Source: Phycisphaerae bacterium (GTDB lineage Bacteria > Planctomycetota > Phycisphaerae > JAJVII01). Taken from it: a DNA stretch of 64,000 nucleotides. This document shows, piece after piece, positions 7,391-52,431 of this stretch (position 1 is its first letter; each line of letters begins with the position of its first letter). A program made the position numbers and the translations under genes. The stretch lies in contig JAJVII010000043.1 in NCBI GenBank assembly GCA_022072085.1, positions 446 to 64,445 on the forward strand, read 5' to 3'. Below the pieces are notes generated by a model that had not been told where the DNA came from, searched no databases, and worked only from the letters and a program-made list of their open reading frames with translations.

Positions 7391-7706
7391 GCCGGCCCGG
7401 GCGCAATGTCGAATGTCGAATGACGAATGAAGGAAGAGGCAGGACGGCTGCCGCCTGTGGCGTGCCATGAGTCCTGCTTTTTCGGGATCGGCTTCCGCGA
7501 GCCGCGAACGGGAGTTCGCGGATGGGCTGTGACCGGTGCAACGGCCGCGATGCCGCGCGATCTACCCGCCAGCTTCCGCTGGCGGCTCGAAAAGGCAAGA
7601 GTCGCGGCGTTGATGCCCCACACTCACCAGCCGCGGGCGCCGGAAGCGCATAAGTCTCCTGTTCCGGTTCGTCATTGATTCGGCATTCGACATTCGTTAT
7701 TCGACA
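7391..7706. repeat. MITE-like element bounded by inverted CGAATGTCGAATGACGAATG / CATTCGACATTCGTTATTCGACATTG word repeats
   Basis: Left end 7395-7420 carries GCAATGTCGAATGTCGAATGACGAATGAAGG and right end 7670-7706 carries CGTCATTGATTCGGCATTCGACATTCGTTATTCGACATTGG. The same repeat words recur at 35972-36231 and 36922-37085. The element occupies the whole intergenic spacer. Confidence 0.55.
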
Positions 7707-17364: not shown

Positions 17365-18857
17365 GCCGCCTGCCTCGCCGAAACGGCGCCAGGCGTCGCG
17401 TCGTCAGCCCGCTGCCGGCGGCGCTGGTGCTGGTCGGCCTGGGGTTGATGGCCTTGTCGATCCGGATCGGCCGGGCCGACGACGCTGCCGCCAAGAAGGC
17501 CCCGACGACGCGGACCGTCAACTGCACCGAGGGCGGCTGCCACGCCAAGGAGATCGACTACAAGGTGCTGCACGGGCCGACCTCCATCGGCGCCTGCGAC
17601 ACCTGCCACGAGTACACCGACGTCGCGACGCACAAGTTCAAGCTCAAGCGCGAACCGACCAAGCTGTGCACCTTCTGCCACGTCGGGCAGGAAGCCGGCA
17701 AGTTGATCCACAAGCCGGTGTCTGAGGGCCAGTGCCTGGGCTGCCACAACCCGCACGGGTCGAGCAACCGCCAGATGCTCCGCAGCGACAACGCCGGCCA
17801 GCTCTGCGCGACCTGCCACGGCGACGTCACGCAGGCCCGCAAGCAGGTCCACGGGCCGGTCGCCGCCGGCAACTGCGTCACCTGCCACAACGCCCACAGT
17901 TCCAACCACCCGCACCTGCTGGTGGCCGAGGGACGCGGCCTCTGCCTGGGCTGCCACAAGGAGATGGATCAGCAGCTCAAGGAGGTGAAGTATCTCCACG
18001 AGCCGGTCAAGGGCGACTGCCTCCAGTGCCACGAGCCCCACGCCTCCAACCAGAAGATGCATCTCCGCAAGGACCCGCTGGACCTGTGCAGCTCCTGCCA
18101 CGCCAATGTGAAGGACCAGGCCCTCAAGAGCACGCACAAGCACACCCCGGTGACCACCGGCGACGCCTGCATCAGTTGCCACACGCCCCACGGCAGCGAC
18201 ACGGCCAAGCTGATGAAGGCGCCCGCCGCCAAGGTCTGCCTCGCCTGCCACGACAAGCCGATCAAGGAAGACAACCTGACCGTCGCCTCGGTCGCCGAGA
18301 TCGCCAAGCCCGGCGAGTTCCTCCACGGGCCCATCCGCGACGGCAACTGCTCCGGCTGCCACAACGTCCACGGCAGCAACGAGAGTCGGCTGCTGGCGGC
18401 GCCCTACACATCCAACTTCTACGCCCCGTTCAGCGTCGAGGATTACGAGCTCTGCTTCACCTGCCACAGCAAGCAGATGGTGACCACCGCGCAGACCCAG
18501 GGGCTGACCAACTTCCGCGACGGGACGGCCAACCTGCACTACGTCCACGTCAACCGCGAAAAGGGGCGCACCTGCCGGGCCTGCCACAGCACCCACGCCT
18601 CCGACCACCCGCTGCACATCCGCGACAGCGTGCCGTTCGGCAACTGGGAGCTGCCGATCCACTTCACCCCGACCGCCAACGGCGGCAAGTGCCAGAGCGG
18701 CTGCCACAAGCCGCTGGAATACAACCGCCTCGGGGCCGTGACGATCAAGCCGCCCGGCGCCCCGGCCACCCAGCCCGACGCCCCGCCGCCCGGCCCGTCC
18801 GCGACCCCTGCGCCCGCAACGACGACCGCACCCGACACCCCGGATGCCAAGCCATGA
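17361..18857 (+). CDS. Periplasmic multiheme c-type cytochrome (13 CXXCH + variants), paralogue of 10025..11491
   Basis: Same doubled-CXXCH repeat architecture, ending …CRACHSTHASDHPLHIRDSVPFG…C..GCH as the paralogue. ATGA overlap with the upstream gene. ORF-track 16422..18857 is an N-terminal extension. Confidence 0.85.
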   Translation: MSRLPRRNGARRRVVSPLPAALVLVGLGLMALSIRIGRADDAAAKKAPTTRTVNCTEGGCHAKEIDYKVLHGPTSIGACDTCHEYTDVATHKFKLKREPTKLCTFCHVGQEAGKLIHKPVSEGQCLGCHNPHGSSNRQMLRSDNAGQLCATCHGDVTQARKQVHGPVAAGNCVTCHNAHSSNHPHLLVAEGRGLCLGCHKEMDQQLKEVKYLHEPVKGDCLQCHEPHASNQKMHLRKDPLDLCSSCHANVKDQALKSTHKHTPVTTGDACISCHTPHGSDTAKLMKAPAAKVCLACHDKPIKEDNLTVASVAEIAKPGEFLHGPIRDGNCSGCHNVHGSNESRLLAAPYTSNFYAPFSVEDYELCFTCHSKQMVTTAQTQGLTNFRDGTANLHYVHVNREKGRTCRACHSTHASDHPLHIRDSVPFGNWELPIHFTPTANGGKCQSGCHKPLEYNRLGAVTIKPPGAPATQPDAPPPGPSATPAPATTTAPDTPDAKP

Positions 18858-19915
18858 ACTCGAAGGAGTCTGCCATGATCTCGCATCCCGTTCGACTCCG
18901 CCTCACGCCGACGCTCGCCCTGGCGTTGCTGGCCGGGCTGAGCTTCTGGCCCACCGGCGCCGTCGGCGACGATCAGCCCACCACCGCCGCCGACGACGCT
19001 CAGTGGTCAGCCAAGGACCTCGACGGCAACGCCGTCCAACTGGGCGACCCGGCCAAGCCGACCGTGCTGCTGTTCCTCATGTCGGGCCAGCCGCAGAGCG
19101 CCGACGCCCTCAAACGCGTCACCGCGTCAGTCAAGGCCCACCCCGGCGTGGACGCCGTCGCCATCGTCAGCGCCGACAAGGCCGCCGACTACGCCGCCAA
19201 GATCAAGGCCGACTGGCCCGGAAAGGTCGCCCTGGACGCCGACTACGCGCTGGCCGGTCGGTGCAACGTGCACGTCTGGCCGACCACGGTCATCCGCGTG
19301 CCCGGCGGAAAGCAACTCGCCCACATGGGCGGACTGCCCGCGTCGCTGGACAACCAGGTGGGGGCCTGGCTGGACTTCGCGACCGGCGCGATCGACGAGG
19401 CCGCGCTCAAGCGTCGGCTCAGCGGGCAGGAGGTCGTCGAGGACAACCCCGCGCAGATGGCGGCGCGGCACCTGGCGGCTGCCGACCGGCTGCTGGACAA
19501 GGGGCTGGTCGCCCAGGCGCGCGACGAGTTGGAGCGCGGGCTGAAGATCAGGCCCGCCGACAGCGCCCTCCAGCTTGCGATGGCCCGCGTGCTGCTGCTG
19601 ATGGACCAGCCGGCCGACGCGATGGCCCTGCTGGACCGGATCGACGCCTCCTCCGTCCCGCCGTGGAAGCTGGACGTGGTGCGAGGCCGGGCCCTGATGG
19701 CGATGGAGAAATGGGACCAGGCCTCGGCGGTGCTGGTCCGGGCGGTGAAGCTGAACCCCGAGCCGTCGGAGGCCTACTACGCGCTGGGCCAAATCTACGA
19801 ACACGCCCTGGACTACCGCCAGGCGGCGACGGCCTACAGGGCGGCGTTCGAGAACAGCCCCACGGGGAGGAAGCTGACGATTTCCCCGATTCCGACGACG
19901 CAGCCGGGGGAGTGA
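18854..19915 (+). CDS. Secreted thioredoxin-fold + TPR protein, paralogue of 11488..12531 (no Cys in the Trx-like core)
   Basis: ATGA overlap with the cytochrome. Same domain order as the paralogue (Trx-like core PTVLLFLMSG…VWPTTVIRVPGGKQ, then TPR helices). ORF-track 17732..19915 is an extension. Confidence 0.6.
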   Translation: MNSKESAMISHPVRLRLTPTLALALLAGLSFWPTGAVGDDQPTTAADDAQWSAKDLDGNAVQLGDPAKPTVLLFLMSGQPQSADALKRVTASVKAHPGVDAVAIVSADKAADYAAKIKADWPGKVALDADYALAGRCNVHVWPTTVIRVPGGKQLAHMGGLPASLDNQVGAWLDFATGAIDEAALKRRLSGQEVVEDNPAQMAARHLAAADRLLDKGLVAQARDELERGLKIRPADSALQLAMARVLLLMDQPADAMALLDRIDASSVPPWKLDVVRGRALMAMEKWDQASAVLVRAVKLNPEPSEAYYALGQIYEHALDYRQAATAYRAAFENSPTGRKLTISPIPTTQPGE

Positions 19916-26638: not shown

Positions 26639-26783
26639 ACATACTCCTTGTAGATCGGGGAAACGCCCCCTCCGATCAGGAGACTGACAGATGATGATGC
26701 GACCGGCTGAATATCGCAGGACCCGCGTGGGTGGCGGCGGCCAGGTTCATCAGGGCAACGGTCAGCCAACTAGGAGGTGTCTT

Positions 26784-27437
26784 GTGAGACATGTTGCCGG
26801 ACACGTATTGACTGGGCTGGCGTTCGTCGGGGTTATGGTGTGGGCCGCCCAGGCCCAGGCCCACCCGTCGACGTGCAGCAACTGTCACACGCCCCACAGC
26901 TCGGTCGACCCCAACAGTGATACGGACTACGGGGTTCCGCTGTGGAGCACGAAGTGGAACAGCGACGGCCTGCCGACGTTCACGGTCTACACCAGCCCGC
27001 TGTTCGACGCGTTGGGAACCGACATCGGCCAGCCCGACGGGCCGAGCAAGCTCTGCCTGGGATGCCACGACGGCAGCTACATCAGCTCCAAGACCGGCAA
27101 CCCGATGGGCACGACGCACAGCTTCAACCCCGGCGGCGGCTCGCTCGCCCAGGGCCAGATGACCCTGACCGAGTCGCACCCGATCAGCTTCACCTACGCG
27201 ACCGCCTACAACAATCCGAACCTGCATGTGCCCGGTTCGCTGAAGGATCCTTCCTCGCCCAGCGGACTGCCGACCGGCGGCACGATCGCCAGCGACCTGC
27301 TGGACAGCAAGGGCAAGGTGCAGTGCACCAGCTGCCATGACGTTCACAACGCCAGCGCCGTGGGCGATCCGAACCTCCGCTTCGACTACGAGGCCGATCA
27401 CGGCAAGACCATGTGCCGGGCCTGCCACAACAAGTAA
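26784..27437 (+). CDS. Small secreted tetraheme c-type cytochrome (paralogue 1)
   Basis: GTG start preceded by AGGAGGTGTCTT. Signal peptide, then CSNCH, CLGCH, CTSCH and CRACH. ORF-track 26691 is an upstream extension. ORF 26676..27428(-) is antisense. Confidence 0.75.
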   Translation: MRHVAGHVLTGLAFVGVMVWAAQAQAHPSTCSNCHTPHSSVDPNSDTDYGVPLWSTKWNSDGLPTFTVYTSPLFDALGTDIGQPDGPSKLCLGCHDGSYISSKTGNPMGTTHSFNPGGGSLAQGQMTLTESHPISFTYATAYNNPNLHVPGSLKDPSSPSGLPTGGTIASDLLDSKGKVQCTSCHDVHNASAVGDPNLRFDYEADHGKTMCRACHNK

Positions 27438-27583
27438 TCGACGCCCAGGGTTCTTAACCGCCGGCCTCGGCCGGCCGACATGGAGAGATGACGATGAACC
27501 TGGTTGAAAACAAGACGGCCAACATGGAAGGCAGCAGCCAGGCTCATCTGATCCGCGAAATGACTTTGAACAGGAGGTGTCTT

Positions 27584-28210
27584 GTGAGACACGTTGCCGG
27601 ATACGTAGTGATCGGATTGGCGGTTCTGGCTGTCGTGATGCAGCCCGCCCCGGTCCTGGCGGCTCATAGCGACTACGGGTGCGCCGGGTGCCACACCCCG
27701 CACTATGCGACCAAGGCCAATGACGCCGAAGGAACCTGGGGCGTCCCGCTGTGGAACAACGTGAACCTGAACGACCAGGCCCTGCCCACGTTCACGCTCT
27801 ACAACAGCCCGACCTTCGACGTTCTGGACACCCAGATCACCCAGCCCGACGGGCCGAGCAAGCTCTGCCTGGGTTGCCATGACGGGACCTACTCCTACAT
27901 GTCGACCGAGCACAGCTTCGGCGCCGGCGGCGGGATGAGCCTGGAAACGTCACACCCCATCAGCTTCGTCTACAGCGACGCGCTGGCCAGCGATCCCAAG
28001 CTCCAGCACGCCGGCGAGCTGAAGCCGCCGTCCACGACGGCCAGCGGGCTGACCGCCAGCGGCACCATCGCGACCGACATGCTCGACGCCAAGAGCAAGA
28101 TGCAGTGCACCAGTTGCCATGACGTGCACACCAGCGGCATCGGTGAGACCCTGCTCCGCAAGAGTTACACCGACGGCAAAACGCTGTGCGTCACCTGCCA
28201 CAACAAGTGA
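27584..28210 (+). CDS. Small secreted tetraheme c-type cytochrome (paralogue 2)
   Basis: Near-identical translation-initiation context (CAGGAGGTGTCTTGTGAGACACGTTGCCGGATAC). Signal peptide, then CAGCH, CLGCH, CTSCH and CVTCH. Confidence 0.75.
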   Translation: MRHVAGYVVIGLAVLAVVMQPAPVLAAHSDYGCAGCHTPHYATKANDAEGTWGVPLWNNVNLNDQALPTFTLYNSPTFDVLDTQITQPDGPSKLCLGCHDGTYSYMSTEHSFGAGGGMSLETSHPISFVYSDALASDPKLQHAGELKPPSTTASGLTASGTIATDMLDAKSKMQCTSCHDVHTSGIGETLLRKSYTDGKTLCVTCHNK

Positions 28211-28251: not shown

Positions 28252-28290
28252 GGGCCGCAGGCGGTCACCCCGCCTGCGGCCCTCTTCTTT
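28252..28290 (+). terminator. Rho-independent terminator (GGGCCGCAGGCGG-tcacc-CCGCCTGCGGCCC followed by TCTTCTTT)
   Basis: A 13-bp perfect GC-rich stem and 5-nt loop with a T-rich tract, 42 nt after the stop of the second tetraheme gene. Confidence 0.7.
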
Positions 28291-28474
28291 GAACGCCCGC
28301 GCGGATAGCCGCCAGGGCGCCAAGGAAGCGCCAAGGGAAGATCGGAAGAGAGAGGAGGGGAATTCAGAGTCGGGCCCGGACTCTTCCTCCCGGCGACTTG
28401 GCGGTTGTCTTCTCATGGCTGCGCCTTGGCAACGCGTCGGGGCAGAATACAATGAAAGGCCCAGGAGGTATGCG

Positions 28475-29623
28475 ATGAGCCGATTCGCGACACCCGTGAC
28501 GGTCCTGGTTCTGACGCTGGCCGCCGCCGCGCTGCTGCCGCTGGCCGGCTGCGAGAAGCCGGAGGAGTCCGGTCCGGCCAAGCTCGTCTTCTATCCCACG
28601 CCGCCCGACCCGCCGCGCTACCAGTTCCTGACCAGCTTCTCGGACATCCAGGAGTGGATCAAGCCCACCCAGACCAGCCTGAAGGACTGGATCGTCGGCG
28701 GACCCACCGAATCCGAGCAGGCGATCAGCAAGATCAAAAACCCCTACGGCGTCGCCTGCCACCAGGGCAAGCTCTACATCTGCGACCTGGGGTTGACGCG
28801 GCTGGACGTGATCGACCTGGTCAAGGGGACCTACACGACGCTGGGCGACAAGCGGACGCTGCCCGACCCGATGAGCATCGAGATCACGCCTGACGGCACG
28901 AAATACGTCTGCGACAAGGCGCTCAAGCAGATCGTCGTCTTCGACGCCAACGACCAGTTCGTCTCGGCCCTGGGCGACCCGAAGGCCTGCACCCCGTCGG
29001 ACGTGGCCGTCGGCGCTGACGAACTCTACGTCGTTGACCAGCTCGGCGCGAAAGTCCAGGTCTGGTCGCGCGACGGCCAACTCAAGCGCGTCATCGGCGG
29101 GGTGGACAAGAACAGCGGCCAACTCATCAAGCCCGTGAGCATTGTGCTCGGCCAGGACAACCAGCTCTTCGTCTCGGACATGATCGCCAACACGATCTTC
29201 GTCTTCGACACCCAGGGCAAGTATCTCCGCAAGATCGGCGCGCCCGGCGACACGACCGGCCACTTCGCCCGCATCAAGGGGATGTGCCTGGACCCGGCCG
29301 GCCGACTCTATGTCGCCGACTCGACCTGGGACACGCTCCAGATCTTCACCCAGGACGGCCAGTTGCTGCTGGCGATCCGCGACCTGACCGAGACCCCGCA
29401 CCAGATGACCCAGCCGACCTGGGTGGCCGCCGACGGCTCCCCGGCCACCATGGAAGTGTTCAGGAAATACGCCGCCCCAGGCTTCGACCCGCAGTTCGTC
29501 GTCTTCGTCTCCAACGAGTTCGGCAAGAACAAGATCACCGTGCTGGCCTACGGCGAAGGCCGACTGCAAGCCGTCCCGGTCCCCGCGGCTGCCCCGACCA
29601 CGCAGCCGGCATCGGCCGACTGA
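28475..29623 (+). CDS. NHL-repeat / beta-propeller lipoprotein
   Basis: AGGAGG lies 6 nt upstream of ATG 28475. Lipobox LAGC. Repeated …LYV(C/A)D… and …QL(F/Y)V(S/V)D… blade motifs. ORF-track 28289 is an extension. Confidence 0.7.
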   Translation: MSRFATPVTVLVLTLAAAALLPLAGCEKPEESGPAKLVFYPTPPDPPRYQFLTSFSDIQEWIKPTQTSLKDWIVGGPTESEQAISKIKNPYGVACHQGKLYICDLGLTRLDVIDLVKGTYTTLGDKRTLPDPMSIEITPDGTKYVCDKALKQIVVFDANDQFVSALGDPKACTPSDVAVGADELYVVDQLGAKVQVWSRDGQLKRVIGGVDKNSGQLIKPVSIVLGQDNQLFVSDMIANTIFVFDTQGKYLRKIGAPGDTTGHFARIKGMCLDPAGRLYVADSTWDTLQIFTQDGQLLLAIRDLTETPHQMTQPTWVAADGSPATMEVFRKYAAPGFDPQFVVFVSNEFGKNKITVLAYGEGRLQAVPVPAAAPTTQPASAD

Positions 29624-29796
29624 ACGCTCTTTCTTCTCCGCCGAGCCGCCAGCGGAAGCTGGCGGGTATCTCACGCGCCGAAGAGAACCGCCAAGGCGCC
29701 AAGGGAAGACGCCAAGGGCGCCAAGCGGGGAAGAGTTTCAACGCCACAGATGGGGCAGGCAGGAGGCGCTGGGCATGTCACCTGCTGGGACCGCTT

Positions 29797-29912
29797 GCAT
29801 TTCTCATTGATCATTGCTCATTTCACATTGAGGGATTGCAGACGCCGACAGCAGCCCGCGCAACCTCTTCAATCTGCAATGTGAAATGAGCAATGATCAA
29901 TGTTCAATTCTC
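29797..29912. repeat. Low-GC element with a perfect 26-bp inverted repeat (CATTGATCATTGCTCATTTCACATTG / CAATGTGAAATGAGCAATGATCAATG) separated by 46 bp
   Basis: Arms at 29805-29830 and 29877-29902 are exact reverse complements. The AT-rich composition contrasts with the 68% GC background. Confidence 0.6.
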
Positions 29913-30012: not shown

Positions 30013-30116
30013 TGCGGGGGAAAGCGGGGCAAGAAGATGCTGGACCGCCAACACATAAAACACTATCATTACATAGGTTAAGAAATCTCCGTCGAGCCCG
30101 TCGAAAACCCTGTGAT

Positions 30117-30132: not shown

Positions 30133-30173
30133 ACTACACTACTTGCAGAGGGCGGCTGACAGGGAGCCTTGCG

Positions 30174-30593
30174 ATGCGACACATGAAGATCAAGCTGGGA
30201 GTCGGAGCGGCCGTCGTGCTGCTGGCGGTCGGGTTTCTGGCCTACGCCGGCGTCCGCAAAGCCCAGGTTTATTACATGGAAGTCGACCAGTTCCTGGCCG
30301 ACCACGACGCCCAGGGCCAGCGGGTCCGGCTGTGCGGCACGGTGGCTGACGGGTCAATCCAGCGCAACGAGTCCGACCTCTCCCTGAAGTTCGAGCTGGC
30401 CGGCCGCGAGCACCGGATCCCCGTCCACTACAGCGGCCAGGTGCCCGACCTGTTTGCCGCCGGCGGCGAGGTGGTCGTGGAAGGCACGCTGGGCGGCGAC
30501 GGGGTGTTCGAGGCCGCCACGCTGATGACCAAGTGCGCCAGCAAGTACAAGCCCGAGGATTACCCGGCCAAGAAGACGGAGACGGGTAAATGA
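30174..30593 (+). CDS. ccmE: Cytochrome c maturation heme chaperone CcmE, variant with Cys replacing the heme-binding His (CxxxY type)
   Basis: N-terminal TM anchor followed by an OB-fold. The VRLCGTVADGS…GQVPDLFAAGGEVVVEGTL…LMTKCASKY block aligns with the proteobacterial CcmE …LPDLFREGQGVVVQG…LAKHDENY, with C where the covalent heme His sits. ORF-track 30006 is an extension. Confidence 0.8.
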   Translation: MRHMKIKLGVGAAVVLLAVGFLAYAGVRKAQVYYMEVDQFLADHDAQGQRVRLCGTVADGSIQRNESDLSLKFELAGREHRIPVHYSGQVPDLFAAGGEVVVEGTLGGDGVFEAATLMTKCASKYKPEDYPAKKTETGK

Positions 30594-32962
30594 CCTCCGC
30601 GTCCTTGGGCGCCATTTCGCTCCTGATCGCAACGGTGATCGCGGCGGCGACGGCCCTGGCGGCCGTGGCGGCGGTCGCGTTCCGCCGTGACGGGCTGGCC
30701 CGCCTGGCCCGGCTGGGCCTGCTGCTGCTGGCGGTCGCGTTCACCCTCTCCTGCGGCATCCTGATCGAGGCCTTTGTTCATAACCGCTTCGTCATCCGCT
30801 ACGTCGCCGACTATTCCGACACCGCCCTGTCGATCGGCTACAAGGTCGCGGGCCTGTGGGCCGGTCAGGCCGGCAGCCTGCTGCTGTGGGGCTGGCTGGT
30901 CGCCGCCATGGGCCTGTTGGCAGCGTTCGGACTGCGCCGCCGCGAGCCGGCGATGCAGGGCGGGCTGATCCTGACGGTCGCGCTGGTCTGCGGCTTCTTC
31001 GGCCTGGTGATGGTCGCGGTGGACGAGGCCCGGCCCTTCACAACCTACGACGCCATCGCCCGCGTCGGGCAGGAGCAGATGCTCGACGCCTTCTCGCCGG
31101 GGGACCGCTCCCGCATCGGCGAGTGCGCCAACGCCCTCCAGAACGCCGTGATGGGCCTGGCGGCCCAGAAGGACAAGCCCTGGAGCGGCACGATCGCGCG
31201 GGTGACTTTCAAGTCCGAGTCGGTCCCCGTCCCGCCCGACCCGTCGCACCCCGGGCTTCACACGCATCAGGAATACGCCGCCTACATCTACCTGGCTGAC
31301 GGGCAGCCCGGCGGCAGCCAGGCGCTGCTGAAGGCGCTGTCAGCCCGTGTGGGCCGGCTGGCCCCGGCCAGCGAGGGCGTCGGCCTCAAGCCGCTGCTCC
31401 AGAACCCGGCGATGGTGATTCATCCGCCGATGCTGTTCGTCGGCTACGCGGGGTTCACGCTGCCGCTGGCGCTGCTGGTGGGCGGGCTGCTGGCAGGCGG
31501 GCTGGACCACGACTGGATCGCCCGCGCCCGCCGCTGGACGGTGGTGAGCTGGCTGTTCCTGGGCGTGGGCATCGTGCTGGGGATGTGGTGGGCCTACGTC
31601 GAACTGGGCTGGGGCGGCTACTGGGCGTGGGATCCGGTCGAGAACGCCTCGCTGCTGCCCTGGTTCGTGGGCACGGCGCTGCTGCACGCGCTGATCGTGA
31701 TGCGCCACCGCCGCCTGTTCAAGCCGATCGTCGCGATCCTCACGCTGCTGACTTTCGCGCTGTGCATCTTCGCGACCTACCTGGTCCGCAGCGGCGTGAT
31801 CCAGTCGGTTCACGCGTTCGGCACGAGCGTTATCGGCGACTGGTTCCTGTGGTTCCTGATCGGCTCGATCGTCGTTTCAGCCGTGGCGATGGTCGTCCGT
31901 TTCCGCGTGCTGGCGCCCGAGGGCGAGGCCCGCTGGGGCGGACGCGAGTGGGCATTGGCCGCCGCCTGCGCCCTGCTCGTGCTGATGTGCGGGTTCACGC
32001 TGGTCGGCACGACTTGGCCGCTCATTTACAAGGCCCTGTTCGGCAAGATGGGCCTGGCGATGGACCAATCCTTCTATAACAACCGCGTGCTGCTGCTGTG
32101 GGGCCTGCCCACTGTGGCGCTGATGGCGTTCGGCCCGCTGATCGCCTACGGCAAGAAGATCCCCGACGACCTCGTGCGGCTGCTGGCCTTCTGCGGCGTG
32201 GCCGCGGCGGTGGCGGTCGGCCTCCCCTACCTGGCCGGCGTAAAGAGCCTCTGGGCGGGCGTCGGGCTGGCGATCCTCGGCCTGACCTTCGGGCTGGTCG
32301 TCTACGACTTCGTGCGGGCGATGTCGCTGGAGCGGGGCCAGGGCCCGGGCGGGGTGGGCCTGGCGTTCCGCATATTCGACGCCAACCACCGCCGCTACGG
32401 CGCCCAGCTCGCCCACGCGGGCGTCGCCCTGTTCATGATGGGCGTGCTGGGCACGGCCCTGTTCAGCACCGACCAGAAGGTGCTGCTGCGGCCGCACCAG
32501 ACCGTCGCCGCGACCAACCCGCTGACCGGCGGCGAATACACCGTCACCTACGACCAGTTCGTGGAGAAGGCCGCCGACACCTACGACTACCAGGCGGTCG
32601 TCCTCGCCGTGGACGCCGGCGGCGGACTCATCCGTCTGACGCCCGAGCAGCGGTCCTACTACTCGCACGTCGGCGAGACCTACGGCGAGATCGACATGAA
32701 CTCCACCGCCGCCCGCGACGTCTACGTCGCCCTGATCGGCGTGGGCAACGGCGGGCTGGTGCGGCTGAACATCATGGTCAAGCCGCTGGCGATGTGGCTG
32801 TGGATCGGAGCGACGGCGATCGCCCTGGGCGGGCTGCTCTGCCTCGTGCCGCCGCTGATTCCCGCGTTCAACCCCGCGACGGCCCGTCAGGGGGACCGCA
32901 AACCCGAACGACCCCGGCCGACGCCGGCCAAGGCCCAGTCGCCCTCGACAGCACGGACCTGA
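30590..32962 (+). CDS. ccmF: Cytochrome c-type biogenesis protein CcmF (heme lyase, WWD domain)
   Basis: 790-aa polytopic membrane protein with a WWD signature (WWAYVELGWGGYWAWDPVENASLLPW). ATGA overlap with ccmE. Confidence 0.85.
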   Translation: MTSASLGAISLLIATVIAAATALAAVAAVAFRRDGLARLARLGLLLLAVAFTLSCGILIEAFVHNRFVIRYVADYSDTALSIGYKVAGLWAGQAGSLLLWGWLVAAMGLLAAFGLRRREPAMQGGLILTVALVCGFFGLVMVAVDEARPFTTYDAIARVGQEQMLDAFSPGDRSRIGECANALQNAVMGLAAQKDKPWSGTIARVTFKSESVPVPPDPSHPGLHTHQEYAAYIYLADGQPGGSQALLKALSARVGRLAPASEGVGLKPLLQNPAMVIHPPMLFVGYAGFTLPLALLVGGLLAGGLDHDWIARARRWTVVSWLFLGVGIVLGMWWAYVELGWGGYWAWDPVENASLLPWFVGTALLHALIVMRHRRLFKPIVAILTLLTFALCIFATYLVRSGVIQSVHAFGTSVIGDWFLWFLIGSIVVSAVAMVVRFRVLAPEGEARWGGREWALAAACALLVLMCGFTLVGTTWPLIYKALFGKMGLAMDQSFYNNRVLLLWGLPTVALMAFGPLIAYGKKIPDDLVRLLAFCGVAAAVAVGLPYLAGVKSLWAGVGLAILGLTFGLVVYDFVRAMSLERGQGPGGVGLAFRIFDANHRRYGAQLAHAGVALFMMGVLGTALFSTDQKVLLRPHQTVAATNPLTGGEYTVTYDQFVEKAADTYDYQAVVLAVDAGGGLIRLTPEQRSYYSHVGETYGEIDMNSTAARDVYVALIGVGNGGLVRLNIMVKPLAMWLWIGATAIALGGLLCLVPPLIPAFNPATARQGDRKPERPRPTPAKAQSPSTART

Positions 32963-32981: not shown

Positions 32982-34166
32982 ATGAAACGCATCGCATACA
33001 CTCTCGCGGCCGCGCTGGCCGGCCTCCTGCTGATCGCCGGTTCGCCACTCCGCGCGGACGACGCCCCCCAGGCCCCGACGACCCAGCCCGACGCGACCGG
33101 CCAGACGCCGCGCCTGCCCGCGGGCCACCCGGCCATCGGCGACACGTCCCGCCTGCCGGCCGGGCATCCGGCCATCGGCGGACAGGGCAAGCTGCCGGCC
33201 GGCCACCCGGCGATCGGCGGGACGGGCGGCCTGCCCGCGGGCCATCCGGCCCTGGGTCCCAACGGCAAGATGCCCGCCGGCCATCCGCAGGTCGAGGGCG
33301 TGACTCCCGAGCAGGCCCCGCCCTTCCCCACCAGCCAGCCCGAGACCGTCCGCGGCGTGCTGATGATAACCGCGACCCAGGGCACCGCGGGCGCCGCCGT
33401 CCCGGCCGGCGACGACGTGCTGGTCGACCTGATGTACGGCGGGTTCTCCATCCGCCAGCTCCGCGGCAAGCTGGACAGCGGCGGGCGGCTGATCCTCAGC
33501 GACGTCCCCGTCGGCGTGAAGGTGATGCCGATGGTCACCGTGCGGCACGACAACCACGACTTCCGCCAGACCGGCCCGCTGATGTCGCCGGAGGACCCCG
33601 ACCGGGCCGTCCGCATCGCCGTCTACCAGACCACCGAGACCGCCCCGGCCTGGAAGGTGTCCATGCACCACCTGATCCTCACCAGGATGCCTGACGGCAA
33701 GTCCTATCGCGTTCGTGAGATGCTGGTCGTCGAGAACCCCACCGACAAGGTCTGGATCGGCCCGATGGACGCCAAGGGCCAGCGCGTGACCATGCACATC
33801 CCGCTGCCGGTCAACACCGACGGCCGGGCACAGGTCGACGCGACGGTGGCTGTGCCCCCGGGCAGCTCGCAGCACACGATCGCCTACGCGATCCCGGTCA
33901 AGGACGGCAAGGCCGTCGTCGAGCTGGTCGCCCCGGCCCCGACCGACCGGCTGGTCGTGGTCAAGGCCGACGACGACGGCGCGAAGGTGAGCCTGGCGGG
34001 CCTGGAGGTCGGCCAGCAGATGCAGATCGACAAGGGGCGCACGATGACCTTCTACCAGGCCGAGTCGCTCAAGGCCGGGCAGAAGGTGTCGTTGACGCTG
34101 GAGCTGTCCGACAAGCCCGCCCCGCCCAAGACCAACGAGGCGTGGCGGACCGGCGGCGGCAAGTGA
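32982..34166 (+). CDS. Secreted protein with five 13-aa xxxLPAGHPAIGx repeats (His/Pro-rich), unknown function, inserted in the ccm cluster
   Basis: Signal peptide, a 39-bp tandem DNA repeat encoding (T/S/G)xxLPAGHPAIGx five times, then a ~250-aa domain shared with the next gene (…ETAPAWKVSMHHLILTRMPDGKSYRVREMLVVENP…). Confidence 0.55.
   Translation: MKRIAYTLAAALAGLLLIAGSPLRADDAPQAPTTQPDATGQTPRLPAGHPAIGDTSRLPAGHPAIGGQGKLPAGHPAIGGTGGLPAGHPALGPNGKMPAGHPQVEGVTPEQAPPFPTSQPETVRGVLMITATQGTAGAAVPAGDDVLVDLMYGGFSIRQLRGKLDSGGRLILSDVPVGVKVMPMVTVRHDNHDFRQTGPLMSPEDPDRAVRIAVYQTTETAPAWKVSMHHLILTRMPDGKSYRVREMLVVENPTDKVWIGPMDAKGQRVTMHIPLPVNTDGRAQVDATVAVPPGSSQHTIAYAIPVKDGKAVVELVAPAPTDRLVVVKADDDGAKVSLAGLEVGQQMQIDKGRTMTFYQAESLKAGQKVSLTLELSDKPAPPKTNEAWRTGGGK
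33100..33295. repeat. 39-bp tandem repeat x5 inside the CDS (encodes LPAGHPAIG units)
   Basis: Five successive CTGCC(C/G)GC(C/G)GGCCA(C/T)CCGGC(C/G)ATCGGC-containing units. Confidence 0.6.
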
Positions 34167-34170
34167 ACCC

Positions 34171-35208
34171 ATGACGCGATCCGGGGAACAGCCCGTGTTT
34201 GGACAAGCTTACTTTCGATTCGGCGCGATGGGGATGGGAGTGGCGGCGGCGTGGCTGGCGTTCGCGCCGGCGGCGTCGGCCCAGCCCCAGGCCGACCCGA
34301 ACCCGACGCACATGACCGGCTCGATCCCCGGCACGCTGCTGGTCATGGTCCAGCAGGGAACCAAGGGGGCGCCGGCCATCGCGGGCGGCCAGGTGGCCGT
34401 GGACCTGGTGCACGGCCGGCAGTCGCACTGGCACAAGACGGCCGAGTTAAGGGAGGACGGGCGGGTGCTGTTGGAGCAGATCCCGATCACCCTGCCGATC
34501 CAGCCCCAGGTGACATTCGCCTACAAAGGCATCGACTACACGCTGGTGGGCAAGGCCATGACTCCCGGCGCCCCCGACGGCGTCGTGCGGATCACCGTGT
34601 TCGAGCCGACCGAGACCGAGCCGGCCTGGGTCGTGAAGATGCACCATATCATCATCACGCCGACGCCCGACGGGCAGGCCTACAGGGTCGAGGAGAGCCT
34701 GGTGGTCGAGAACCCCGACGACCATACCTGGATCGGCAGACCCGACGGCCACGGCGGGCACGTCACGATGCGGCGGGCCCTGCCGGAGAACCTGGACAAC
34801 AAGCCCGAGTTCGTCAGCGATCAGCCGCTGCTGGGCGGCACGTCGAACTTCAAACTCGGCTACGTCATCCCGGTCCGCGACCGCAAGGCCGCCCTGCGAG
34901 TGCCGATGGTCGCGCCGACGCGGCAGGTAGAGGTCATGGTGACCGCCGACGAGGGCACACAGGTCGAGGCGGTGGACCTCACGCCCGACCCGTCCATGAA
35001 CCAGATGACCGGCAGAGAGTGCTACAAGGCCACGGACCTGGCGACCGGGCAGACGGTGGGCGTCTCGCTGGCGCTGCCGGCAGCCAAGGCGGTCGCCACG
35101 GCCGCCGGCGGCTCGCCCCTGCGCAAGATGCTCGCGCTGATCGGCGGAGCGATCGTGCTGCTGGGCCTGGGCATGTTCTGGTTCAGGAAGAAAGAGAAGA
35201 AGGCGTAG
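34171..35208 (+). CDS. Paralogue of 32982..34166 without the HP repeats, with a C-terminal TM anchor (unknown function)
   Basis: Shares …TE(T/P)(A/E)PAW(K/V)V(S/K)MHH(L/I)I(L/I)T…DG(K/Q)(S/A)YRV(R/E)E…VVENP… with the previous gene. Signal-like MGMGVAAAWLAFAPAASA gives an alternative start at ~34228. C-terminal helix LALIGGAIVLLGLGMFWF. Confidence 0.5.
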   Translation: MTRSGEQPVFGQAYFRFGAMGMGVAAAWLAFAPAASAQPQADPNPTHMTGSIPGTLLVMVQQGTKGAPAIAGGQVAVDLVHGRQSHWHKTAELREDGRVLLEQIPITLPIQPQVTFAYKGIDYTLVGKAMTPGAPDGVVRITVFEPTETEPAWVVKMHHIIITPTPDGQAYRVEESLVVENPDDHTWIGRPDGHGGHVTMRRALPENLDNKPEFVSDQPLLGGTSNFKLGYVIPVRDRKAALRVPMVAPTRQVEVMVTADEGTQVEAVDLTPDPSMNQMTGRECYKATDLATGQTVGVSLALPAAKAVATAAGGSPLRKMLALIGGAIVLLGLGMFWFRKKEKKA

Positions 35209-35212
35209 CGTC

Positions 35213-35971
35213 ATGAGCGTCGTGCTGGCTGCATCCGACACCGCGAAGGCCCCGCCGCCGACCCGGTCGCTCCCGGCGGTGCAGGCGCTGGAGATCAGCA
35301 AGCGGATCGACGGCCGACCGATCCTCCAGGACGTCTGCATCGACATCGCCAAGGGGCGCTACGTCGCCCTGCTGGGGGCCAACGGCGCGGGCAAGACCAC
35401 ACTGATGAAACTGCTCTCGATGCTCGCCCCGCCCAGCGGCGGGCAGCTCCACCTGTTCGGCCAGCGGGTCACGCGCGAGGGGTCGCCGAAGCTCCGGGCG
35501 AGGATCGGGCTGATCGGCCATCAGCCGATGCTCTACGGCGACCTGACGGCGCGGGAGAACCTGCTGCTGTTCGGGCGGCTCTACGGCGTGTCCGACGTCG
35601 CCGACCGGGCCGAGGCGCTGCTGAAGCGCGTGGACCTGGCCGGCCGCGCGGACGACCCGGTGAAGGCTTACAGCCGCGGCATGACCCAGCGGGCCTCCAT
35701 CGCCCGGGCCCTGATGCACGGGCCGGACCTGCTGCTGGCCGACGAGCCCTTCAGCGGGCTGGACGCCCCCTCTAACCAGATGCTGGAGGAGCTGCTGGCC
35801 GAGTTGCACCGCGACGGCAAGACGATCGTGCTGGCCCATCACGACATCGAGCAGAGCCTGCGGGTCGCCGAGCAGGCCGTCGTGCTCCGCCGCGGACGCG
35901 TGGTCGTCGACCGCCCGACCCGGCAGCTCGACCGCGAGACGACGCTGGCGGAAATGACCGGGCAGGCATGA
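35213..35971 (+). CDS. ccmA: Heme exporter ATP-binding protein CcmA (ABC ATPase)
   Basis: Walker A GANGAGKTT, signature FSGLD?-like LSGG region (PFSGLD), Walker B LLLADEP. Position and family consistent with ccmA. Confidence 0.75.
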   Translation: MSVVLAASDTAKAPPPTRSLPAVQALEISKRIDGRPILQDVCIDIAKGRYVALLGANGAGKTTLMKLLSMLAPPSGGQLHLFGQRVTREGSPKLRARIGLIGHQPMLYGDLTARENLLLFGRLYGVSDVADRAEALLKRVDLAGRADDPVKAYSRGMTQRASIARALMHGPDLLLADEPFSGLDAPSNQMLEELLAELHRDGKTIVLAHHDIEQSLRVAEQAVVLRRGRVVVDRPTRQLDRETTLAEMTGQA

Positions 35972-36231
35972 ATACCGAATGGCGAATGTCGAATGGATGA
36001 CGAAACCCGAATGCCGAATGTCGAATGGCCCGCCGGCGGCGCAAGCTTCCGGTTCGTCATTGGTGCTTCGTCATTCTTTCGTCATTGGGAAATCGGGGCT
36101 TCCGAAAGGCCCCGGGGTCTGGCTCGCTTTTCGCCGGCTCGGAGGCGTAAAGCGTGCCTGACCCCCTCTCCCAGGGGCCTTTCAGAAACCCCCATTCGTC
36201 ATTCGTCATTGCCCCCCGAAGGGGGCCTGCC
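35972..36231. repeat. MITE-like CGAATG word-repeat element (left CCGAATGGCGAATGTCGAATGG…, right …CATTCGTCATTCGTCATTG) with internal hairpins
   Basis: Forward GAATG-type repeats at 35975-36030 and reverse-complement CGTCATT/CATTCG repeats at 36045-36210, plus small GC hairpins (GGGGCTTCCGAAAGGCCCC, CCCCCCGAAGGGGGC). Fills the ccmA-ccmB spacer. Same family as 7391-7706. Confidence 0.55.
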
Positions 36232-36921
36232 ATGACCGTGCTGGGCCAGATCGTTCTGCTCACCGGCAAGGACCTGCGGATCGAGCTGCGCACGCGGCAG
36301 ACCGTCGGACTGGTCATCACGCTGGGGCTGCTGATCGTGACGGTGCTGGGGCTGGGCCTGGCGCCGGAGGGCAAGCTGGGCGGCTACGCGGCGCCGGCAG
36401 TGCTCTGGGTCGCCTACCTCTTCGGCGGCGTGCTGATCTTCGAGAAGACGATGGACAAGGAGCGCCGCGACGGGGCGATGGCCGGCCTGATGATGGCCCC
36501 GATCGACCGCGGCGTGATCTTCCTGGCCAAGCTGCTGAGCAACCTGGCGCTGCTGGGGTTCCTGGCCGTCGTGATCGCGCTGTTCGCGATCGTGCTGTTC
36601 GGGCTGGACCTGTCGGCGGCCCCGGGCGGTTTCGCCGGGGTGATGGCGATGAGCCTGCTGGGGTTCGCCGCGGTCGGGACGCTTTTTTCGGCGCTGACCA
36701 GTTCGACGCGGCTGTCGGGCGGGCTGCTGGCGATGCTGGTGTTCCCGATCGCCATCCCATTGGTGATTGCATCGACCAGCGTGCTCAACCGGCTGTTCGC
36801 GTCCAAGCCCGCTGCCGGGGACGACGGCACGTTTCTGACGGCCCTGGGCGTGCTGGTCGCATTTGACGTGGTGTTCCTGGTGGTGAGTTGGCTGATCTTC
36901 GAGGTCGTGCTGGAACCGTGA
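36232..36921 (+). CDS. ccmB: Heme exporter membrane protein CcmB
   Basis: About 229 aa with 6 TM helices and CcmB-like N-terminus MTVLGQIVLLTGKDLRIELRTRQ. ORF-track 36154 is an extension into the repeat element. Confidence 0.7.
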   Translation: MTVLGQIVLLTGKDLRIELRTRQTVGLVITLGLLIVTVLGLGLAPEGKLGGYAAPAVLWVAYLFGGVLIFEKTMDKERRDGAMAGLMMAPIDRGVIFLAKLLSNLALLGFLAVVIALFAIVLFGLDLSAAPGGFAGVMAMSLLGFAAVGTLFSALTSSTRLSGGLLAMLVFPIAIPLVIASTSVLNRLFASKPAAGDDGTFLTALGVLVAFDVVFLVVSWLIFEVVLEP

Positions 36922-37085
36922 GGTCAATGACGAATGTCGAATTCCGAATGACGAAGGAATGGCGAAGCACCAATGACGAATGGAAGGCGCGCGTCGCTCT
37001 CGGCCCGTGGGCATTCGTGATTCGGGCTTCGTCATTCACTCGACATTCGACATTCATCACTCGACATTGCCCGTAGGAGTCTTCC
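36922..37085. repeat. MITE-like CGAATG word-repeat element (third copy), ccmB-ccmC spacer
   Basis: AATGACGAATGTCGAATTCCGAATGACGAAGGAATGG… is followed by its inverted counterpart …ATTCGTGATTCGGGCTTCGTCATTCACTCGACATTCGACATTCATCACTCGACATTG. Confidence 0.55.
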
Positions 37086-37763
37086 ATGCGGATGAGAGTC
37101 ACACTCTACTGGCTGGCCACGGCGGCGGCGTTCGCCGGCGGGGTGGCCTTGCTGATCCTCTACACGCCCAGGGAACGGACGATGGGCGTGATCCAGAAGG
37201 TCTTCTACGTCCATCTGCCGTCGGCAATCTGCATGCTGCTGTGCGGGCTGCTGGTGTTTGTCGCAAGCATCGGCTACCTCGGCTCGCGGCGGATGTGGTG
37301 GGACGACCTGGCGGCGGCCGCGGCGCGGGTGGCGATCCTGCTGGGGGCGATCGTCCTGATGACCGGCATGCTGTGGGGCCACATCGCCTGGTGGGGCCGG
37401 ATGCGGTGGTGGTACTTCACCCCCAAGCTCACCTTCAGCCTGCTGCTGTTCCTGCTCTATCTGGTCTACGTGATGATTCGGCCGGCCGTCGAGTCGCCGC
37501 AACGCCGGGCGGTCGTGGCGGCCGTCTACGGCGTCATCGCCTTCCTGGATGTACCGCTGGTCTGGCTGTCGGCCAGGCTGATCCCCGACCCGCTGCACCC
37601 GGTCAACGAGGGCATGGCCGCCCCGATGAAGATGACCCTGCTCTACTGGTTCGTGCCGGTGGGGCTGATGGTGGCCGGGCTGATCGTCGCCCGGTTCCGG
37701 CTCAACCGCGCCGTCCGCGAGCGGGCCGACGCCCTGGCCGGGTCGGCCGGAGGTGACGCATGA
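37086..37763 (+). CDS. ccmC: Heme exporter protein CcmC-like (divergent tryptophan-rich loop)
   Basis: 225 aa with 6 TM helices and a W-rich periplasmic loop (GMLWGHIAWWGRMRWWYFTPKLT) in the position of the CcmC WWD motif. Family call is by architecture and context. Confidence 0.65.
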   Translation: MRMRVTLYWLATAAAFAGGVALLILYTPRERTMGVIQKVFYVHLPSAICMLLCGLLVFVASIGYLGSRRMWWDDLAAAAARVAILLGAIVLMTGMLWGHIAWWGRMRWWYFTPKLTFSLLLFLLYLVYVMIRPAVESPQRRAVVAAVYGVIAFLDVPLVWLSARLIPDPLHPVNEGMAAPMKMTLLYWFVPVGLMVAGLIVARFRLNRAVRERADALAGSAGGDA

Positions 37764-37876
37764 GCGACAGGCAGTTCCTTATCCTGGCTTACGCGATCGC
37801 CCTGGGCTTGATGTGGGGCTACGCCGCGATCCTCTGGGCAGGCCTGGCCAGGTTGCGTGCGAAGTCGAAGCGGTAA
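37760..37876 (+). CDS. ccmD: Small single-TM protein, CcmD-like
   Basis: 38 aa (MSDRQFLILAYAIALGLMWGYAAILWAGLARLRAKSKR), ATGA-coupled to ccmC. Not in the ORF track, which is presumably length-filtered. Confidence 0.45.
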   Translation: MSDRQFLILAYAIALGLMWGYAAILWAGLARLRAKSKR

Positions 37877-37880
37877 GACC

Positions 37881-37894
37881 GGCACGAACGACGC
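37881..37894 (+). promoter_or_regulatory. Weak sigma-54-like element GGCACG-AACGA-CGC
   Basis: GG/GC spacing and the GGCACG -24 box are correct but the -12 region lacks TT. Lies upstream of the 37934 octaheme gene. Confidence 0.3.
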
Positions 37895-37933
37895 CCGCAA
37901 CCGTTCGGTCCTGATTCTGGATTCGAGTCTGAA

Positions 37934-39146: not shown

Positions 39147-41144
39147 TTGGGCATGACAAGAATCATAAGCGTGCTTGTGAAGGATCGCACCGGCGACAGG
39201 CTCCGTCGCTTGCAGCGGGGACTCTGCTGCGCGGCGCTGGCAGCGCTGGCCATGATGGGCCTGCCCGCAGGCGCCCGCGCCGACGACACCGAAGGCTGCC
39301 TGATGTGCCACCGCTACGCGGGGCTGACGGCGGTCGACCCCAAGACCGACCACATTCGGCTCTATGGCGTCGACCCGGACTACTATCGCCACGAGCTGGG
39401 CCCGCACGTCCGGCTGAAGTGCACCGACTGCCACGACCGCGAAGCGGTGAGCACCGTGCCGCACAAACCGGTCCAGCCGGTGGACTGCACGCGGCAGTGC
39501 CACCTGAGAAGTCCGCAGCGGACCGAGCAGCTCTTCAGCCACAGCCGCATCGCCAGCATGCTCAAGGCGTCGGTTCACGACCCCGGCATGACGCTGGCCC
39601 AGAGCAACCGGCTGCTGGGCAGCCCGCTGCGCGAGGGCCAGAGCACCTGCCTGCTCTGCCACGACGAGCCGCGGTTCCTGCCGCCGGGGCACTCGTGGGC
39701 CGACAGTGAGGCCCCGATCGAGCGCTGCAACGTCTGCCACGACGAGTCGATGGGCGTGGACACGCGATACTTCTACCGCCACGTCGAGGCCCGCAGCGCG
39801 TCGGCCCGCAACAACCAGGACACCGTCCGCGTCTGCGCCCTCTGCCACGCCAACGACGCGGTGCGCAAGCAGTACGAGCTGCCCGACTCGATCGCCAGCT
39901 ACCTCAACAGCTTTCACGGCAAGGCCACGCTGCTGGGCAGCCAGGAGACCGCCGACTGCCTCGACTGCCATGTCGGGCCCATGCAGAACGTCCACATGGT
40001 GATGCGGCACGCCGACGCCAGGGCGCCGACGCATCCCGGCCGGCTCGAGGACACCTGCCGCACGCCCAGATGCCACCCGGCCGCAGGTGCAAGAATCAGC
40101 TCGGCCGCCGTCCACCTGGACCTCGCGACCGGACGAAGCGTCGAGTGGGTCATCGCACTGCTGTTCATCTTCCTGATCCTGTTCACCTTCGGCCCGTCGG
40201 TGATGCTGACGGCGCTCAAGATGCTCCACGTCGTCGTCGGCCGCCACGACCCGGGCGACCACGACCGTGCCCACCGCGCCGAGCGGATCGTCGTCCAGCC
40301 GCGCGGGCGCAAGCTGCTCGAGCGGTTCAACCCACACCAGCGGGCCCAGCACTGGGTGCTGGCGATCACCTTCGCGACGCTCGTGCTGACGGGCTTCCCG
40401 ATGAAGTTCGCCGACCGGGCGTGGGCCGCCTGGCTGGTCAACCTGATCGGCGGGCTCACCGTCGCCCGCGTCGTCCACCGCGTCGCCGGCGTGACGCTGA
40501 TCGTCGCGATGCTCTACCACATCGGCTACATCATCCGCACGCTGGTGCGCAGCAAGCGGCGCGAGGGCAAGAGCTGGTTCCGCGCCGTCTACGAACTGCC
40601 GATGATGATCACGTTCGCCGACCTCAAGCAGATGGGCCAGATGATGGCCTACCTGCTGTTCCTGCGCCGGACGCGGCCGCAGTTCGACCGCTTCAACCTC
40701 GAAGAGAAGTTCGAATACATCGGCGTGTTCTGGGGCACGTTCCTGCTGGGGTTCACCGGGGCGCTGATGTGGGCCAACGCATGGACCAGCCAGCACTTCC
40801 CCGGGCGGCTGCTCACCATCGCCACGCTCGTCCACACGATGGAGGCGCTGCTGGCGCTGCTGCACGTGGGCGTCGTCCACATGATCAGCGTCATTTTCGC
40901 GCCCGGCGTGTTCCCGATCAGCCCGGCCATGTTCACCGGCAGGACGCCCACCGAGGAAATCGCCGAGGCCCACGGCGCGATGCTCGCCCGGGCCGAGGCG
41001 GCCATGGGCGTCGGCGAGCATTACGATTCCCCGCCGTCAGGTGGGGATCGGGGGTCAGGGGCCGGGGGCCAGGCGCCTCCGCCCGATCCCCAGCCCCCGA
41101 CCCCCGACCCGGCCAAGGGCGGAAAGGAGGACAGCCATGGTTAA
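39147..41144 (+). CDS. CbcL-like fusion: periplasmic multiheme cytochrome c domain (6 CXXCH + CX3CH/CX4CH) fused to a membrane diheme cytochrome b (HydC/FdnI family) domain; putative quinol oxidoreductase feeding periplasmic cytochromes
   Basis: Signal peptide, then CLMCH, CTDCH, CTRQCH, CLLCH, CNVCH, CALCH, CLDCH and CRTPRCH. Five TM helices follow, with HydC/FdnI-like His pairs (…NPHQRAQHWVLAITFATLVLTGFPMKF…, …EALLALLHVGVVHMISV…). Low-complexity Pro-rich tail. Confidence 0.8.
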   Translation: MGMTRIISVLVKDRTGDRLRRLQRGLCCAALAALAMMGLPAGARADDTEGCLMCHRYAGLTAVDPKTDHIRLYGVDPDYYRHELGPHVRLKCTDCHDREAVSTVPHKPVQPVDCTRQCHLRSPQRTEQLFSHSRIASMLKASVHDPGMTLAQSNRLLGSPLREGQSTCLLCHDEPRFLPPGHSWADSEAPIERCNVCHDESMGVDTRYFYRHVEARSASARNNQDTVRVCALCHANDAVRKQYELPDSIASYLNSFHGKATLLGSQETADCLDCHVGPMQNVHMVMRHADARAPTHPGRLEDTCRTPRCHPAAGARISSAAVHLDLATGRSVEWVIALLFIFLILFTFGPSVMLTALKMLHVVVGRHDPGDHDRAHRAERIVVQPRGRKLLERFNPHQRAQHWVLAITFATLVLTGFPMKFADRAWAAWLVNLIGGLTVARVVHRVAGVTLIVAMLYHIGYIIRTLVRSKRREGKSWFRAVYELPMMITFADLKQMGQMMAYLLFLRRTRPQFDRFNLEEKFEYIGVFWGTFLLGFTGALMWANAWTSQHFPGRLLTIATLVHTMEALLALLHVGVVHMISVIFAPGVFPISPAMFTGRTPTEEIAEAHGAMLARAEAAMGVGEHYDSPPSGGDRGSGAGGQAPPPDPQPPTPDPAKGGKEDSHG

Positions 41145-48090: not shown

Positions 48091-48196
48091 CTCGGTCTCC
48101 TCGTGCGGGAGCGCTGTCGGGCGCTCCGGGGGGTTACTTGATAGTGTAGCGCTCATCTCTGCCGCGCTCCCATCGCGGCGGATGTCGCGCGCCCGG

Positions 48197-50185: not shown

Positions 50186-50187
50186 GG

Positions 50188-52425: not shown

Positions 52426-52431
52426 CGCGGC

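Follow-up and report, generated by a model that had tools for sequence, protein, structure and literature searches.

CcmE with cysteine in place of the haem-binding histidine (CxxxY) in the ccm operon of a Phycisphaerae bacterium

Results and discussion

The ccm operon

The window analysed in the current work (the whole stretch of DNA under study, 64 kb in length, with a G+C content of 68.7%) carries a ccm operon with the gene order ccmE-ccmF-X1-X2-ccmA-ccmB-ccmC-ccmD, the real reading frames of which were chosen by GC3 (Table 1). The first gene, ccmE, occupies exactly the coordinates given in a first-pass annotation of this DNA (30174-30593, + strand), and its stop codon (30591-30593) shares the tetranucleotide ATGA (30590-30593) with the start of ccmF. 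A second 4-nt overlap is found between ccmC and ccmD, and the gaps from ccmF to ccmA measure 4-19 nt. Given distances of -4 to +19 nt between consecutive genes, co-transcription of ccmE through ccmA is very likely. The order E-F-A-B-C(-D) is shared with Desulfovibrionaceae loci, from which the window differs by the extra X gene(s) between ccmF and ccmA.

Table 1 Features of the ccm operon and of its upstream neighbours, in positions of the window
Feature	Position	Strand	Evidence and remarks
Two paralogous tetrahaem c-type cytochromes (248 and 240 aa)	26691..28210	+	4 CxxCH each; Pfam Paired_CXXCH_1; 5' of ccmE
NHL-repeat beta-propeller protein	28289..29623	+	Pfam NHL/DUF5128; between the tetrahaem cytochromes and ccmE
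Shine-Dalgarno-like GGGAG	30162..30166	+	7 nt 5' of ATG 30174; direct sequence reading
ccmE (139 aa)	30174..30593	+	Pfam PF03100
Cys121 codon TGC	30534..30536	+	Column of E. coli haem-binding His130; phmmer and 15-sequence MAFFT alignments
Tyr125 codon TAC	30546..30548	+	Column of E. coli Tyr134, the haem-iron ligand
ccmF (790 aa)	30590..32962	+	Pfam CcmF_C and Cytochrom_C_asm; alignment with T. thermophilus CcmF (6zmq)
X1 (394 aa)	32982..34166	+	Signal peptide, five 13-residue LPAGHPAIG repeats, beta-sandwich core of about 265 aa, no membrane anchor
Tandem 39-nt repeat array	33111..33287	+	TRF; codes for the X1 LPAGHPAIG repeats
X2 (345 aa)	34171..35208	+	Tandem paralogue of X1; signal peptide, beta-sandwich core, C-terminal TM helix and basic tail, no GHP repeats
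ccmA (ABC ATPase)	35213..35971	+	Pfam ABC_tran; position conserved in related loci
ccmB	36232..36921	+	Pfam CcmB PF03379, E=1.4e-26
ccmC (225 aa)	37086..37763	+	Pfam Cytochrom_C_asm; NCBIfam ccmC
Probable ccmD (38 aa; MSDRQFLILAYAIALGLMWGYAAILWAGLARLRAKSKR)	37760..37876	+	One TM helix, basic tail; overlaps the ccmC stop (ATGA); GC3 0.89

Within the 550 nt that separate the NHL gene from ccmE stands a near-perfect long inverted repeat (CATTTCTCATTGATCATTGCTCATTTCACATTG ... CAATGTGAAATGAGCAATGATCAATG, 29790-29900), which may be a terminator or a regulatory hairpin, and which is followed by a weak sigma-70-like site at 30041-30069. Arrays of a 7-nt unit (TTCGTCA / TTCGACA) arranged in inverted blocks, with 24 matches against 1.5 expected and resembling REP elements, lie in intergenic DNA at 7410-7710 and in the ccmA-ccmB (35976-36212) and ccmB-ccmC (36924-37038) gaps.

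CcmE and its CxxxY motif

The ccmE product matches the Pfam CcmE profile (PF03100) from position 2 to position 99 of 99 (E=1.7e-29; 102.5 bits against a cut-off of 24.6), and phmmer matched it to CcmE sequences of the PDB from E. coli (8ce8_E, 1sr3), Shewanella (1j6q) and D. vulgaris (2kct) with E values between 1e-10 and 1e-8. It scores below the cut-off of all eight NCBIfam CcmE equivalogs, the best being NF009727 with 86.9 bits against 126. An AF2 model built from 60 homologues (mean pLDDT 88.6) predicts a membrane-anchor helix at residues 2-30, the strands of an OB-type barrel at residues 33-118 (pLDDT about 90-97) and a low-confidence C-terminal tail, which carries C121-A-S-K-Y125 and in which Cys121 stands immediately past the last strand. 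When this model was compared to the PDB with Foldseek, the top five matches were all CcmE, 2kct being superimposed with an rmsd of 2.0 Å at 39% identity. NCBI already holds an identical protein from a MAG contig, under the name ‘Cytochrome c-type biogenesis protein CcmE [Phycisphaerae bacterium]’.

The first-pass annotation had also read the C-terminal region, ATLMTKCASKYKPEDYP, as a CxxxY motif in the place of the canonical HxxxY, and the phmmer and MAFFT alignments agree with this reading for both the cysteine and the tyrosine (Table 1). The preceding TLMTKC context is common to the D. vulgaris protein (PDB 2KCT). Among 60 database homologues, 58 have Cys in the His130-equivalent column, within a near-invariant T-K-C-A-S-K-Y, and the remaining two have His (AKHSEEY), while the tyrosine equivalent to Tyr125 is present in all 60. 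No column of this alignment holds a conserved alternative His in or near the periplasmic domain, and the histidines of the window CcmE itself (residues 3, 44, 79 and 84) fall in columns that are variable in the family. The product of 30174-30593 is confirmed as a CcmE in which Cys replaces the haem-binding His.

A scan of species genomes (one genome per species) recovered CcmE relatives in 247 genomes, the best 80 of which belong to Phycisphaerae and other Planctomycetota, to Desulfovibrionaceae/Bilophila and to Chloroflexota/Dehalococcoidia. In the set of loci assembled around ccmE, all 87 CcmE copies spanning the motif have Cys, a figure that measures the spread of the Cys form and not its frequency, since the seed pattern favoured Cys. 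The motif reads CASKY in 34 of 34 Planctomycetota-labelled loci and CPSKY in 40 of the 46 sampled non-planctomycete loci, Desulfovibrionaceae and Chloroflexota being mostly CPSKY. A second cysteine of the window protein, Cys54 (30333-30335; R-L-C-G), lies in what is predicted to be the first OB-fold strand past a short N-terminal strand; a cysteine of this type occurs in half of the homologues (30/60) and in 8/34 Planctomycetota-labelled loci, but is missing from the other 46, where Phe is the usual residue.

CcmH, CcmG and System II genes

Neither CcmH nor a CxxC thioredoxin, CcdA/DsbD or ResB/CcsB was found among the ORFs of the window, where the CcmH Pfam profile gave a single sub-threshold match, to a TM segment inside CcmC. 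The CcmH signature LRCxxC is absent from the window and from 94 related loci, in which neither CcmH (LRCxxC) nor a CxxC thioredoxin was found within 10 kb of ccmE. Genes for CcmH, CcmG, CcdA or a parallel System II could lie beyond the 64 kb analysed. The only thioredoxin-fold domains of the window, both devoid of CxxC, are encoded at 11488-12531 and 18860-19915 (+) by two paralogues that combine a thioredoxin/redoxin fold with C-terminal TPR repeats (a weak TPR_CcmH_CycH match), each directly 3' of a 13-haem Paired_CXXCH cytochrome (10025-11491 and 17361-18857, respectively). These redoxin-TPR proteins may be CcmI-like apocytochrome chaperones.

The remaining ccm genes

The WWD motif of CcmF (WGGYWAWDPVEN) is located at residue 341 and P-His1, within VIHPP, at about residue 278. 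Ahead of the P-His1 loop the protein carries an insertion of about 100 aa (residues ~153-258) with coding-like GC3 and no recognised domain; the HPP position is 168-196 in 14 of 15 other CcmF proteins, including those of Desulfovibrionaceae and other Phycisphaerae, the remaining one (locus L022) being an incomplete ORF. CcmA scores 115.5 bits against NCBIfam TIGR01189, under the cut-off. For ccmB, the ATG at 36232, which is preceded by AGGGGG, is the likely start, rather than the GTG at 36154 of the mechanically called ORF, and tblastn matches begin at residues 24-32 of that longer ORF.

Both His ligands of CcmC are kept (YVHLP and LHP, in an alignment with E. coli CcmC, 7f02_C). Its W-rich loop (residues ~97-113; WWGRMRWWYFTPKL) is atypical, with a 3-residue insertion and the sequence WWGRMRWWYFT without the canonical WD, so that haem presentation may differ. 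The corresponding motif is WWVWD in E. coli and WWTWD in Desulfovibrionaceae and Chloroflexota loci, whereas planctomycete CcmC has WWTWS and the window protein is more diverged. An alternative ORF for ccmC (36980-37756, 258 aa) was rejected, as it is out of frame and matches no family.

The 38-aa ORF that overlaps the ccmC stop is probably CcmD. In many related loci the ccmC stop is likewise overlapped by a small ORF of this kind, and as the window ORF has no match in Pfam, its assignment is by position and shape only; the E. coli CcmD reference used in its alignment is an approximate sequence, which makes that alignment merely indicative. The ORF at 37753-37914 was discarded as a candidate for ccmD (GC3 0.52, no TM segment), and so was a CcmC-CcmD fusion, because the six hydrophobic segments read in CcmC, presumably the number that E. 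coli CcmC also has, leave no spare helix for CcmD.

Gene X between ccmF and ccmA

The two genes inserted between ccmF and ccmA, X1 and X2, encode proteins with 39% identity over 262 residues. Neither finds a family in Pfam or NCBIfam, even at E<=10, and the source records name only ‘hypothetical protein’. A word-indexed homologue search with X2 returned X2 itself only, while an exhaustive HMMER profile search recovered 816 cluster representatives at E<=1e-3, of which 174 reach E<=1e-30. The AF2 model of X2 has a pLDDT of 86.5 (about 97 in the core), and its Foldseek matches are to generic beta-sandwiches only (Ost1/ribophorin I, E about 1e-7 and TM about 0.3, and the N-domains of M1 aminopeptidases); no function is drawn from them.

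In other loci X is usually a single-copy gene. Its periplasmic product, of 350-450 aa, combines a signal peptide and 0-5 N-terminal LPxGHP repeats with a beta-rich, double beta-sandwich core, and ends in a TM helix and a basic tail. This architecture is divided between the window paralogues, X1 having kept the repeats (at residues 45, 58, 71, 84 and 97) without the anchor and X2 the anchor without the repeats. Further forms include a 915-aa triple-domain protein encoded between CcmF and CcmA, and a fusion to the ABC ATPase. Of the 33 Planctomycetota-labelled loci that were informative, 32 carry X between ccmF and ccmA; the Desulfovibrionaceae loci all lack it. In the reverse test, a metagenome scan seeded on X alone, ccm genes directly adjoined X in 13 of 14 loci, the fourteenth being a locus of only 1.2 kb. 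X is thus probably an accessory part of the ccm operon in planctomycetes, and its participation, next to CcmF, in the handling of apocytochromes or haem is put forward purely as a hypothesis; a literature search for the GHP motif together with haem found nothing.

A planctomycete-type operon, with a CASKY CcmE, an X gene and a WWTWS CcmC, was also observed in a MAG labelled Bacillota (JBLNDH010000279.1), a label which, considering the type of the operon, probably reflects mis-binning.

Cytochromes around the operon

The first-pass annotation had remarked on an expanded cytochrome inventory near ccmE, and this inventory can now be quantified: 12 ORFs predicted to encode c-type cytochromes, with 111 CxxCH motifs in total and 24 in the largest, lie within the same 36 kb (10025-46099). 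This stretch also encodes a split cytochrome b, a NapC/NirT-type cytochrome and several NHL beta-propeller proteins. In many planctomycete loci, ccmE is syntenic with homologues of the tetrahaem cytochromes and of the NHL protein located directly upstream (Table 1).

Cys-type CcmE and System I*

A Cys-type CcmE is a described and experimentally studied variant with a solved structure (2KCT), and is not new. According to Allen 2006 and Goddard 2010, as relayed in Stevens 2011, Cys takes the place of His in all archaeal and some bacterial CcmE, including that of Desulfovibrio (PMC3601427). The same source names the variant System I* and describes cytochrome maturation by it in E. coli without CcmH and CcmG (PMC3601427). 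The absence of CcmH from genomes with a Cys-type CcmE is frequent and not universal (Stevens 2011 review, PMC3601427). Later genome surveys extended the Cys form to other delta-proteobacteria, Chloroflexi and Firmicutes (PMC3601427, PMC9084895, PMC3884852), with CPSKY as the majority motif (25/36 genomes). The first-pass description of a minority form with a different haem chemistry is in agreement with this literature. No mention of Planctomycetota or Phycisphaerae together with Cys-type CcmE or System I was returned by the literature searches, and the occurrence of the variant in this lineage, together with its CASKY sub-motif, appears to be without a prior description.

Compared with the proteins of Desulfovibrio desulfuricans and D. 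vulgaris (CcmE*), the window CcmE is alike in its CxxxY motif, TLMTKC context, OB fold and operon order, and both operons are without CcmH or CcmG; it differs in its sequence, with only about 35-43% identity, and in having CASKY where the studied Desulfovibrio proteins have CPSKY. The archaeal CcmE of Methanosarcina acetivorans, by its published description, likewise has Cys for His, within a streamlined system without CcmH/CcmI (PMC9084895), but archaeal systems are described as having no CcmD and a split CcmF, whereas the window has a CcmD-like ORF and a single large CcmF. The HxxxY proteins of E. coli and Shewanella (1SR3, 1J6Q, 8CE8) belong to the same Pfam family and share the anchor, the OB fold, the placement of the reactive residue right after the last strand and the conserved Tyr; the window protein departs from E. 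coli CcmE in the replacement of His130 by Cys and in an identity of 26%, as well as in scoring below the NCBIfam equivalog cut-offs.

Proposed haem delivery and alternative explanations

We regard it as highly probable that the window encodes a functional System I* CcmE, i.e. a membrane-anchored periplasmic haem chaperone which carries haem by means of Cys121 and Tyr125 from CcmABCD to CcmF. As to the Cys-haem chemistry, the independence from CcmH and CcmG and the identity of the clients, we infer the following route from homology to the studied systems. CcmC(D), with the CcmAB ATPase, would present haem at the periplasmic face, where CcmE would take it up on the surface of its OB fold, with Tyr125 ligating the iron. 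Cys121, located where the flexible C-terminal tail begins, would stand in for His130, most likely by forming a thioether-type covalent bond to a haem vinyl. The released holo-CcmE would then pass its haem to CcmF for attachment to CxxCH sites without a canonical CcmH, the likely clients including the multihaem cytochromes encoded around the operon.

The step of this route on which published work diverges is the covalent link, the existence of which is disputed. Cys121 might act solely as a non-covalent thiolate or axial ligand, haem being carried reversibly and without a covalent thioether intermediate; this would agree with the finding of Aramini et al. 2012, as relayed in a 2013 review that also covers the NMR structure 2KCT, that D. 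vulgaris CcmE binds ferric haem non-covalently in vitro through its conserved C127 (PMC3884852), and with the remark of Stevens et al. that onward transfer would require the breaking of a thioether, a difficult step (PMC3601427). The D. vulgaris work in vitro was, however, performed without CcmABCD, and D. desulfuricans CcmE* is reported to bind haem covalently in vivo (PMC3601427), while Gupta et al. 2022 found C120 of M. acetivorans CcmE to be indispensable for haem attachment and stability, the haem-stained band depending on this residue (PMC9084895). A purely non-covalent mode is thus considered unlikely. In E. coli, the H130C variant of CcmE binds haem and does not pass it on (PMC9084895), from which it follows that the partner proteins of a Cys-type CcmE must be co-adapted.

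Besides the chemistry, the scope of the system and the authenticity of the codon have to be weighed. The position of the operon amid the 12 cytochromes and the recurrent synteny with tetrahaem cytochrome and NHL homologues would fit a module dedicated to the neighbouring multihaem cytochromes, as part of an electron-transfer island, with general maturation left to another system elsewhere, e.g. System II, which anammox Planctomycetes are reported to use (PMC4429474). Yet no System II gene (ResB/CcsB) is present within the 64-kb window, and Desulfovibrionaceae loci have the same type of operon without flanking tetrahaem cytochrome or NHL homologues, which leaves such a restriction as a rather unlikely reading. 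That Cys121 is an artefact, whether it arose from faulty sequencing or assembly of a His codon or marks a decaying pseudogene, is an a priori possibility in any metagenome-assembled genome and has nothing else in its favour: a change between TGC and CAC requires two substitutions, the ORF is intact, with a ribosome-binding site, an overlapping ccmF start, and a normal GC3 and predicted fold, and the conservation of the cysteine in the homologues and in the sampled loci described above refutes this explanation, to which we accord practically no probability. A sequencing error at the codon is accordingly excluded, and since no alternative conserved His was found either, both of the objections that the first-pass annotation had raised against its own reading fall away.

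The replacement of His by Cys in CcmE bears on how covalently held haem is released and on why System I* can dispense with CcmH and CcmG. By itself, the present locus adds little to these questions, since the variant is already documented and structurally characterised. Its interest lies rather in establishing Cys-type CcmE as the standard form in a large group of planctomycetes (Phycisphaerae and relatives), most of them uncultured, whose cytochromes are very rich in haem and whose ccm operon nearly always includes the extra gene X. The planctomycete operon with X may represent a new variant of System I*. A more specific proposal, which we advance tentatively and at somewhat less than even chances, is that Planctomycetota possess a distinct System I* sub-type, defined by a CASKY CcmE, a WWTWS CcmC and an X product serving as a hitherto undescribed maturation factor, e.g. 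as an apocytochrome- or haem-handling CcmF partner replacing CcmH/CcmI, with the His-Pro repeats as candidate haem or metal ligands. Should the X product be such a factor, it would give natural access to the workings of CcmF in the absence of CcmH.

Further clusters in the window

The largest cytochrome (43289-46099, +; about 936 aa, 24 CxxCH motifs) is preceded by two NHL/cytochrome genes and by a gene for a fused multihaem cytochrome c / cytochrome b561 protein (39147-41144), and the region resembles an extracellular or periplasmic electron-conduit cluster. Further downstream, on the opposite strand (47203-54366, -), three HlyD-family proteins, one with a PqqD-like N-terminus and another with a GAF domain, are encoded around a short SecA-like ATPase (679 aa; SecA_DEAD, PP_bind, P-loop). 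Such an export-type cluster is unusual, and it has no relation to the ccm operon.
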